DNA of 5,383 nucleotides. Source: a virus (Duplodnaviria; Heunggongvirae; Uroviricota; Caudoviricetes). A program made the translations under genes and the position numbers. How positions within the stretch are numbered: position 1 is the first letter of the stretch; each line of letters begins with the position of its first letter. The stretch covers positions 1 through 5,383 of the IMG/VR virus record IMGVR_UViG_2684622670_000007. One strand, written 5' to 3'. Shown here one piece after another: positions 1,381 through 3,490 of the stretch. The notes under the pieces are model-generated. The model made no database searches. It was not told the origin of the DNA and saw nothing but the letters and a program-made list of their open reading frames with translations.

Positions 1381-1382
1381 AA

Positions 1383-1655
1383 CTACCTGCCTTGACGAAA
1401 GACCTTAAGAACATCGTTAAACTGACTTACGGATATGTCTTCTTTGAGCAGCTTTTCCAGAAATGCGTTTGGAATGAACGTATATCCCTCCTCTTTTGGT
1501 AGGGACGGGAGCAACGCCCTCGCCTCAGCCTTCAGAAGCTCAGTTCTGGCAACTTTCACAAAAGAGATTTGAGTTCTTTCATCAATGGAACGAAGGAAGC
1601 GCAAACGCTTAACTTCTTTGTGTGTATCAGGTGGATTAAAGCCTTTGTTTCGCAT
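1383..1655 (-). CDS. Hypothetical protein (90 aa) between cII and the O-like gene
   Basis: Internal ATG (revcomp 1653-1655) is preceded by GAGGTAA at good spacing. The 146-aa version in the ORF track would overlap the cII-like gene by about 145 bp in another frame, so the shorter start is preferred. The stop lies 2 nt before the O-like ATG. No homologue recognised by eye. Confidence 0.5.
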   Translation of the reverse strand: MRNKGFNPPDTHKEVKRLRFLRSIDERTQISFVKVARTELLKAEARALLPSLPKEEGYTFIPNAFLEKLLKEDISVSQFNDVLKVFRQGR

Positions 1656-1666
1656 ATAATTACCTC

Positions 1667-1735
1667 GTTGGATGTTATTAAAATTCCATTTGTATTTGAT
1701 CAGAACGCTCGGTCTTGCACACCGGGCTTTTTTTA
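1667..1735 (+). ncRNA. OOP-like antisense RNA (promoter pO-like plus intrinsic terminator), antisense to the 3' end of cII
   Basis: Perfect -10 TATAAT at 1655-1660 with a weak -35. Plus-strand hairpin 1707-1713/1721-1727 (7 bp, one G-U) followed by T7 (1728-1734) lies inside the cII 3' coding region. The predicted ~68-nt transcript would overlap cII by ~57 nt, as lambda OOP does. Confidence 0.45.
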
Positions 1736-1977
1736 TTGGTGAGTCCATCAAGCGCATACTTAAAAGCCCTGCTAATCGGACTGATGTCTGATGCCATTCC
1801 AAAAGCACACAAGACCGAAGCAATAAATCTCCAGTCCGTTCTGCTTATCTTCGATTCATGACAGCCAATCATCTTTGCCAGACCGCGCTGGGTAAGCGTT
1901 GACAGGTTGATGAGTAAATCTGTTTCTGCGCGATCAACGTCGCGCTGTGATAGTTTGCTGTAACTTGTTTGTTCCAT
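1678..1977 (-). CDS. cII: cII-like transcriptional activator (99 aa)
   Basis: The translation aligns with lambda CII from recall: HTH region ...ESKISRTDW... and C-terminus ...LTNKKSPVCKTERSDQIQMEF versus lambda ...LTNKKRPAATERSEQIQMEF. Position downstream of cro and nutR is as expected. Confidence 0.85.
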   Translation of the reverse strand: MEQTSYSKLSQRDVDRAETDLLINLSTLTQRGLAKMIGCHESKISRTDWRFIASVLCAFGMASDISPISRAFKYALDGLTNKKSPVCKTERSDQIQMEF

Positions 1978-2410: not shown

Positions 2411-3118
2411 ATGAAAACATTCGCAGAAAGACTAAATGCAGCCATGAGCTCAGCAGGTGTATCGCAATCACAGCTTGCTGACATGGTTGGAATATCTCAG
2501 CCAGCCATACAGAAGATGTCATCCGGTAAAACAAACGGATCTCGCAAGATGGTTGAATTAGCCAATGCTTTAAAAGTACGCCCTGAATGGCTTAGCTCTG
2601 GTATTGGTGAAATGAGGGATGGTACACATGAAGAACCATCCAATGTCCGTGAATCATCTTTAAAAGCTGTGGTATGGGAAGATATTAAAAGAAACGATGA
2701 CGAGTTTGTCGCGTTGCCTCTTCTTAACGTTTCGCTTTCAGCTGGAAGCGGTAGCTGCGAGCTAGAGGAATCATCAGAGTTCTCTTTGGTTTTCAGAAAG
2801 TACTATCTGAAAAAGATGGGGGTATCTGAAAGATCAGCCAAGCTAGTTAGGGTTGTAGGGCAAAGCATGGAACCAACGCTTCACGACGGAGATGTTGTTG
2901 GTGTTAACACACAAGATACCACAATCAGAGATGGTAAAACCTACGCTATTTGCCAGTCTGATTTGTTACGAGTAAAAACATTAATCGCCACCCCTACATC
3001 GGTGATAATCAGATCAATAAATCGCGAAGAGTACCCAGATGAAGTAATGGATAGAGATGAATTTCATGAAACCGTAAGGATTATTGGCAGAGTATTCTGG
3101 TCGTCTCATAGTTGGTAA
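2411..3118 (+). CDS. cI: CI-like prophage repressor: N-terminal HTH_XRE domain plus C-terminal S24 (LexA-type) autopeptidase domain
   Basis: HTH QSQLADMVGISQPAIQKM; S24 motifs GQSMEP (Ser nucleophile) and RVKTL (Lys); candidate Ala-Gly cleavage site in LSAGSG. The ORF track begins at TTG 2381, but the ATG at 2411 (MKTFAERL...) fits the promoter geometry. Confidence 0.9.
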   Translation: MKTFAERLNAAMSSAGVSQSQLADMVGISQPAIQKMSSGKTNGSRKMVELANALKVRPEWLSSGIGEMRDGTHEEPSNVRESSLKAVVWEDIKRNDDEFVALPLLNVSLSAGSGSCELEESSEFSLVFRKYYLKKMGVSERSAKLVRVVGQSMEPTLHDGDVVGVNTQDTTIRDGKTYAICQSDLLRVKTLIATPTSVIIRSINREEYPDEVMDRDEFHETVRIIGRVFWSSHSW

Positions 3119-3158: not shown

Positions 3159-3455
3159 ATGGAATTTCTGATAGTTTTTGTTGTTGTTTTGGTCATCATT
3201 CTTTTTGTTTTGCTAAGCATTAGCAAAAAGCTATCTCAAACGATTGAACATAGCTCTAATCGCGCAAAAGAAGAAGACCATCTAATTGATATAAAAGAGA
3301 TTCTCTCTGATATAAAAATCACATTAGATGAAATAAAATACACAACAGATCTAATTGAACAGTATAAAATACCAACCCCAAACGAGAGAAAAGCAATAGA
3401 TCAATATCGTATTGACTTAGAAATCGACGAAATGCTAAGCAAAAGAAAAGACTAA
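3159..3455 (+). CDS. Small membrane protein (98 aa): one N-terminal transmembrane helix then a charged, probably coiled-coil domain; sits in the position of lambda rexAB and is probably co-transcribed with cI
   Basis: Strong SD GGAGG (3150-3154) before the ATG. Hydrophobic residues 3-21 (FLIVFVVVLVIILFVLLSI) are followed by a K/E/D-rich region. Markedly AT-rich compared with the flanking phage genes. Lies 41 bp downstream of cI and is followed by an intrinsic terminator. Confidence 0.6.
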   Translation: MEFLIVFVVVLVIILFVLLSISKKLSQTIEHSSNRAKEEDHLIDIKEILSDIKITLDEIKYTTDLIEQYKIPTPNERKAIDQYRIDLEIDEMLSKRKD

Positions 3456-3460
3456 AAACA

Positions 3461-3490
3461 CCCGGCCTCAGCGCCGGGTTTTCTTTTCCT
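3461..3490 (+). terminator. Rho-independent terminator ending the cI operon; possibly bidirectional
   Basis: Stem CCCGGC (3461-3466) / GCCGGG (3473-3478), 6-nt loop, then TTTTCTTTTCC. An A-run upstream (3454-3458) gives a U-run for the opposite strand. Confidence 0.75.

Follow-up and report, generated by a model that had tools for sequence, protein, structure and literature searches.

A conserved 90-codon gene between cII and the replication initiator of lambdoid phages

In phage lambda, cII ends at position 38653 and O starts at 38686, and the 32-nt spacer between them is gene-free. In the phage DNA analysed here, a stretch of 5,383 nucleotides that we refer to as the window, the corresponding interval is filled by an open reading frame of 90 codons (hereafter the ORF). 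What is this reading frame, and what might it do directly ahead of a replication initiator? A sequence-only reading of the window had stated that lambda lacks a gene at this place, that the ORF has a good ribosome-binding site and that its stop lies 2 nt from the ATG of an O-like gene. All three statements were correct, and the description as a whole was accurate, except that it left unmentioned that the ORF lies on the minus strand.

The ORF and the slot it occupies

The window is a lambdoid immunity and replication region that reads right to left. A cI-type repressor gene with HTH and Peptidase_S24 domains (2411-3118) lies on the plus strand. On the minus strand follow a Cro-like gene (2320-2078), a cII homologue (1678-1977; Pfam Phage_CII, E 1.1e-33), the ORF (1383-1655), a gene for an O-type replication initiator of 315 aa (433-1380; Pfam Phage_rep_O, 3.7e-15; phrog_345, 2.5e-97) and the 5' part of a DnaB-type helicase gene (2-436; Pfam DnaB N-terminal domain, 4e-14; phrog_19). 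The C-terminal domain of the initiator is of the P22 gp18 type, as judged by tblastn to the C-terminus of P22 gene 18, and the helicase ATG overlaps the initiator stop (ATGA, 436-433). Translation of the window places the ATG of the ORF at 1655-1653 and its TAG stop at 1385-1383, and the predicted product is net basic with a mass of about 10 kDa. A Shine-Dalgarno sequence, GAGG (1663-1666, minus strand), stands 7 nt before the ATG and is kept in all 10 loci surveyed. The ORF is separated from the cII stop at 1678 by a gap of 22 nt, and the initiator ATG at 1380 lies exactly 2 nt past the ORF stop. The longest mechanical reading frame in the same frame has 146 aa, begins at a TTG at 1823 and overlaps cII; the ribosome-binding site and all homologues support ATG 1655 as the likely start.

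The interval itself has been described before. Hayes et al. (2012, PMC3349717) recognised that lambdoid phages have an "orf" slot, bounded by oop and the O-like gene and occupied by orf48 in P22 and by gp53 in HK97, and wrote that lambda "is naturally missing" it. We confirmed that P22 orf48 (DUF2740/PF10872, phrog_1913) and mEp213_055, which is of the HK97 gp53 type (phrog_1331), occupy the same slot with the same overlaps. The ORF shares the positional properties of this class. It lies on the rightward strand between the cII/oop terminator and the O-like gene, its start falls on the oop/pO homology block and its stop abuts the initiator start. Like orf48 and gp53, it starts on a lambda-O-type initiation region that overlaps the oop promoter and encodes a small, basic, helical protein with a stop that abuts or overlaps the initiator start. 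Unlike them, it is about twice as long and carries an O-like C-terminal segment.

Homology to orf48/DUF2740 was considered on the strength of a shared HKxxxRxRFLxS motif and a weak local HMM match, and was rejected: hhalign returned 2% over 18 columns with a P of 0.02. None of 18 members of the ORF family matched PF10872 at E <= 1, and one matched phrog_1913 at E 0.21. As judged by these comparisons, the ORF is a third family in the slot, distinct from the orf48 and gp53 types. Our literature search returned no paper that names DUF2740 or gives any occupant of the slot a function, and a study of the replication regions of Stx phages (PMC8044961) does not discuss the ORF.

Family, selection and protein anatomy

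The ORF product matched phrog_2519, a family of unknown function, at E 2.2e-57, with residues 1-90 aligned to positions 1-90 of the 90-position profile; three diverged members (P0038, P0040 and P0042) match it too. Its RefSeq entry is WP_001244625.1, "hypothetical protein". The label "unassigned" given to the ORF by the sequence-only reading is apt for function. It does not hold for the family, which is represented by phrog_2519 and WP_001244625.1 and whose slot appears in PMC3349717. A word-index search of 5.8 billion proteins found 34 relatives, all from Enterobacteriaceae, among which the length of 90 aa is constant down to 71% identity. When 1.84 billion cluster representatives were searched exhaustively with a profile, only 15 proteins emerged. 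Among these 15, the diverged full-length members (about 51-63% identical) have 90-93 aa, and two short members of 62 and 72 aa keep only the C-terminal core. No long protein with the ORF as its N-terminus was present among the 1.84 billion representatives. NCBIfam gave nothing useful beyond a sub-threshold match to TIGR01610, discussed below.

The gene order is cII, ORF, initiator even where the homologue of the ORF is only 41% identical. The ORF is present in 57 phage records, mostly of Stx2a-converting phages; carriers that are not Stx phages include CUS-3, Kapi1, JEP4, HF4s, Gally and TL-2011a. Of 5,426 complete E. coli genomes, 279 (about 5%) contain it as well, always under the name "hypothetical protein". 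A lack of conservation in related phages had been named as an outcome that would count against the ORF, and we observed the opposite: it is kept in related and in quite distant prophages. One record stands apart. OR850084.1 (2.7 kb, "Staphylococcus phage SA 1298 Kay") holds a version of the ORF that is 75% identical, with an initiator that is 62% identical; carrying enterobacterial lambdoid genes, this record is probably mislabelled or a contaminant.

We compared the DNA of eight family members by Nei-Gojobori distances. Across homologues, pN was 0.14-0.45 and pS 0.57-0.96, with synonymous sites near saturation; restricted to full-length, unsaturated pairs, dN/dS was 0.11-0.16. The cII genes of the same loci gave higher values, 0.25-0.76, and conservation of the ORF exceeds that of both neighbouring genes. 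As a frame control, pN/pS in the same alignments was 0.24-0.54 in the ORF frame versus about 0.8-1.9 in the two shifted frames. Mean pairwise difference at codon positions 1, 2 and 3 was 0.34, 0.24 and 0.60, the ORF frame was the only one open in all seven full-length homologues, and 42 of the 90 columns were invariant in the core clade. Collectively, these patterns indicate purifying selection on the peptide that is strong and extends over its whole length, and make it very likely that the ORF is a real gene under selection.

Decayed prophages also contain copies of the ORF, which carry frameshifts or have lost DNA so that the 5' half is joined to other genes. The first 36-52 residues are kept across P0021, P0023, P0024 and P0030: in P0021 the N-terminus is frameshifted, while N-terminal residues are fused to the C-terminus of a DnaB helicase in P0023, to a fragment of the Dam-methylase family in P0024 and to PF09306-family sequence in P0030. 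P0043 is a fusion of P22 Cro residues 1-19 to the C-terminal core of the ORF. These frameshifted and fused copies show how the ORF looks when it is not under selection.

What kind of protein does the ORF encode? An AF2 model (m93e741013106, pLDDT 83) has a long basic helix, a hairpin and two helices. The helix is predicted to be a single, long, basic alpha-helix spanning codons 11-51 (1503-1625, minus strand), and its residues H12, K13, K16, R17 and R19 are invariant in the core clade. Codons 53-89 (1389-1499, minus strand) form the C-terminal third, the most conserved core of the family, and are similar to the opening ~35 residues of the winged-helix domain with which O-type initiators bind the origin. 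The judgement that the protein was not recognisable by eye therefore stands only in part, since its last third reproducibly resembles the start of that domain. Pfam Phage_rep_O was matched by 16 of 18 family members scanned independently, over profile positions ~6-39 of 95 and with a best E of 5e-5. The C-terminal core also matched phrog_678, "replication initiation O-like", and the family HMM scored 21 bits on residues 22-57 of the N-terminus of the HK97/mEp213-type O. Aligned to the initiator N-terminus with hhalign, residues 53-89 fell on initiator residues 23-59 (P 1.6e-4, probability 50%). The similarity is short, ~35 residues, and every O-like score of the segment lies below curated thresholds: the ORF reached 14.6 bits against Phage_rep_O, where the Pfam cut-off is 28.7 bits, and matched TIGR01610 at E 0.011, the member P0009 scoring 16.2 bits against a cut-off of 45.5. 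Fold searches with the model gave no match, and neither the profile of the ORF nor that of the initiator N-terminus had a hit among PDB sequences. Because the resemblance is consistent across the sequence searches, we consider it probable, on modest statistics, that residues 53-89 share descent with the first beta-hairpin and two helices of the O domain.

The likeness to the N-terminal domain of O-type initiators (PF04492, TIGR01610) consists of the pattern GYxxIPNxxLExLLxxDLSxxQFxVLxxxR and the predicted hairpin-helix-helix arrangement. The differences are as clear. The ORF product begins with an unrelated N-terminal helix of ~50 residues, and it ends at about initiator residue 59, at the point where the O domain continues with RKTYG..., the recognition helix and the wing. 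It has neither a complete DNA-binding domain nor the C-terminal domain that binds a helicase or loader. Since the recognition helix and the wing are absent, the product does not qualify as an initiator and is probably unable to read DNA as O does.

Partners in the replication module

We favour an explanation, with a probability of about 0.5 as a whole, in which the ORF is an early gene coupled to the initiator, has an O-derived core and encodes an accessory modulator of the replication module. The ORF is part of the rightward string of cro, cII and initiator genes, in a variable slot between cII/oop and the O-type initiator, and gene order and lambda biology suggest expression from the early rightward promoter pR. 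Ribosomes that finish the ORF would feed translation of the initiator, so that synthesis of the initiator would follow that of the ORF. As to origin, the ORF probably arose as a 5' fragment of an initiator gene at a mosaic junction that was retained and then kept by selection. The weakest step is the last, in which the product would be a non-essential accessory factor or modulator working through protein-protein contacts, for example with the initiator or with one of its host partners; contacts of this kind are proposed because the DNA-reading part is absent.

The sequence-only reading had suggested either a replication accessory factor or an early regulatory protein. Slot position and the O-like segment are the two observations that point toward replication, and a replication-modulating function can be proposed tentatively on that basis. 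A more specific version is an exapted initiator fragment in which the first strand and helices of the O domain, joined to the long basic helix, would modulate O-type initiators in trans. Such a protein would cap or mimic the N-terminal surface of the initiator, thereby timing assembly of the O-some or altering the exposure of the initiator to proteolysis. In this precise form the proposal is rather unlikely.

If the product acts on the replication module, which components does it accompany? The initiators downstream of the ORF are of at least four N-terminal types, and the clades of the ORF do not track them. The gene that follows the initiator specifies a DnaB-type helicase in the window and in four other loci (L003, L005, L006 and L008) and a lambda-P-type loader in two (L012 and L013). 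In the chromosome of E. coli MB53 (L019, 6001-8596), a nucleotide-identical ORF has a different set of repressor, cro and cII genes as neighbours. The helicase of MB53, WP_001248388.1, is the accession listed as Eru2B by Llarena et al. (2021, PMC8044961), and some ORF-bearing modules at least are therefore of the Eru2 replication type.

The initiator type of the window also occurs without the ORF, in Klebsiella and Yersinia phages. In Klebsiella phage 2b LV-2017 (L015, 1004-1801) the slot holds a ParB-like gene of 265 aa, and in Yersinia phage vB_YenM_210.17 (L016, 868-1801) it holds a 59-aa reading frame and a KilAC antirepressor gene. These genes are unrelated to the ORF, and their stops overlap the initiator start. 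An obligatory or specificity-matched partnership with one initiator was rejected on these grounds: the initiator types are several, two helicase-loading strategies are represented and an initiator type exists without the ORF. The mixed partners and the initiator type that lacks the ORF instead suggest an independently reassorting, non-essential unit. Because the slot carries unrelated cargo elsewhere, position in it is weak evidence for a role in replication.

A separate observation concerns the helicase of an Stx2a phage (L001, LC487996.1, 5065-7458). After the same initiator, this helicase is annotated with 797 aa, versus 455-466 aa in L003, L005, L006 and L008, which suggests that extra sequence has been inserted; an intein or a fused domain would be candidates.

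The main rival to a role in the replication module is that the ORF is accessory cargo unrelated to replication, expressed with the early right operon and acting in the lysis-lysogeny decision, on a host target or against a host defence. Such cargo would be at home in a slot that elsewhere holds the ParB-like gene, the KilAC antirepressor gene, orf48/DUF2740 or gp53. The free reassortment of the ORF relative to initiator, helicase or loader and cII/cI types points the same way, and conservation above that of both neighbours is what a conserved host target would lead one to expect. However, the core of the protein reproducibly resembles the start of O-type origin-binding domains, and every intact ORF is tightly and immediately joined to an O-type initiator. 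Moreover, the PADLOC models of anti-phage defence gave no accepted match, the only hit being JetB at E 0.02 for one of four members, and Pfam gave no match of the product to a regulator family. We regard accessory cargo as a real possibility, short of probable.

The junction with the initiator and the antisense promoter

The explanation we favour includes coupling between the ORF and the initiator, and the junction bears directly on this step. In the window, the 3' end of the ORF and the junction (CAAGGCAGG TAG TT; 1381-1394, minus strand) contain an SD-like AGG for the initiator and the 2-nt spacer between stop and start. The intact contexts (L002-L013 and MB53) consist of cII, a spacer of 19-28 nt, the ORF and an O-type initiator, and the ORF-initiator junctions read TAGnnATG, ATGA or an overlap of 8 nt. 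This tight arrangement of stop and start is kept in all 12 contexts examined, which fits the coupled expression suggested by the sequence-only reading. An apparent 62-nt gap before the initiator in some loci was discarded as a start choice of the gene caller; an in-frame start, MSNTA..., is present 2 nt past the ORF stop. Of 10 loci, 8 have an SD-like motif for the initiator within the last codons of the ORF, and the other two, L003 and L005, lack one. From this geometry, translation of the initiator is probably coupled to that of the ORF, and the coupling may be partial, since most initiators keep an SD of their own.

The initiation region of the ORF (GGAGTnAATTATATGCGAAA) is conserved across loci and aligns with the initiation region of lambda O. 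Homology to lambda covers the cII 3' end and the oop terminator, continues up to the start codon of the ORF and then ends, and the SD of the ORF is positionally homologous to that of lambda O. On this alignment, the ORF occupies the start site of lambda O, and the initiator has moved one cistron downstream. The same DNA reads as a promoter on the other strand. The complement of the conserved GGAGTnAATTATATG block is TATAAT (1655-1660, plus strand), the putative -10 element of a pO-like promoter that overlaps the ORF start codon; AATTATA, the complement of this element, is conserved in every locus. The P22 record annotates an oop promoter and terminator at the equivalent places, with the promoter over the start of orf48. 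A consensus promoter scan of the window did not call the pO-like promoter, and we attribute this to its weak -35.

Transcription from here would yield an oop-like antisense RNA (1667-1737, plus strand) that ends within the cII 3' end, as suggested by lambda homology and the predicted fold. The predicted +1, G1667, lies seven bases past TATAAT and is the counterpart of the lambda oop RNA 5' end. Inside the 3' end of cII, an intrinsic terminator (1707-1727) is followed by a T-run; it is homologous to the lambda oop terminator. Rfam contributed no oop model and no other RNA match in the window; with the promoter scan also negative, the assignments of pO and oop derive from homology to lambda and P22. 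A DnaA-box-like TTAATCCAC seen by eye inside the ORF was dropped as it is not conserved in L003 or L005.

In plasmid R1, translation of the initiator gene repA is coupled to that of the leader ORF tap and is under the control of the antisense RNA CopA. The window resembles tap-repA in having a short upstream ORF with a stop that abuts the initiator start, and an antisense promoter and RNA at the initiation region of that ORF. It differs from it in that the 5' end of the oop-like RNA lies 1 nt beyond the SD and the RNA complements the cII 3' end, not the SD or start codon of the ORF, and in that the peptide is strongly conserved (dN/dS about 0.12). Another reading is a purely cis-acting leader: the ORF would only bring ribosomes to the initiator, under an initiation region overlapped by oop/pO, and its peptide would have no function. 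Such a leader would explain why abutment or overlap of stop and start is kept in all contexts, why the ORF sits on the lambda O initiation region, how the L003 and L005 initiators manage without an SD and why unrelated small ORFs (orf48 and gp53) have the same position and the same overlap. But the peptide of a pure leader is expected to be unconstrained and to drift, whereas this one is under strong purifying selection along its whole length, with the dN/dS of 0.11-0.16 and the invariant columns given above, and 90 codons far exceed what coupling needs. We therefore consider a functionless leader peptide improbable.

Even less credible is the view that the ORF is an inert scar of recombination: a remnant of the 5' end of an initiator gene that was displaced, still open by chance. 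The similarity of the C-terminal third to initiator residues ~23-59, its end where a complete initiator begins, and the start of the ORF at the position and initiation region of lambda O would all suit a scar. Yet the protein is conserved although synonymous sites are close to saturated, the frame stays open and the length is retained at 41-51% identity with independent stop positions, no intact longer parent turned up among the cluster representatives, and copies that have truly decayed look different, with frameshifts and fusions. As a present state the scar is refuted by dN/dS and the frame controls, and it survives only as an account of origin. Finally, a role of the ORF as an N-terminal extension of the initiator, made as a long isoform by programmed frameshifting or readthrough, is very remote: relative to the ORF, the initiator is in the -1 frame in the window, L003, L005 and L006, but the offset varies among loci (+1 in L008, with its 8-nt overlap), we saw no slippery heptamer on reading the junction sequence, and a fused protein was never called in the databases searched.

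The ORF is thus a well-supported "conserved hypothetical" gene in a known slot. Family and slot had already been catalogued or described; what is new here is the evidence for strong selection and for a core that is probably initiator-derived. Many Stx2a-converting phages carry the gene in their replication-control region, as do P22-like coliphages such as CUS-3 and Kapi1, and a conserved protein encoded immediately before the initiator, with which it is perhaps coupled, could modulate the dosage or activity of that initiator. The classical lambda model has no counterpart of this gene, so lambda may not fully describe replication control in the phages that carry it. Llarena et al. (2021, PMC8044961) connect the stability of Stx prophages, and through it the output of toxin, with the type of their replication region. 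If the O-like segment truly derives from an initiator, the ORF would be a clean example of a gene fragment at a mosaic junction that was kept by selection. If, in addition, the fragment acts on initiators in trans, it would represent a previously unrecognised class of phage replication regulator that operates across initiator specificities and helicase-loading strategies.

Two further features of the window lie outside the ORF. Inside the initiator gene, positions 823-965 hold an array of ~12-nt repeats (TCATGTGCGG-type) that encode a repetitive linker and are probably origin iterons; the lambda ori likewise lies within O. The repressor gene is directly followed, in the same orientation, by a 98-aa ORF (3159-3455, plus strand) with a hydrophobic N-terminus and then by a GC-rich hairpin and T-run at ~3459-3487. 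This 98-aa ORF may encode a membrane protein expressed by the prophage, in a position like that of rexAB, the lysogen-expressed genes of lambda.
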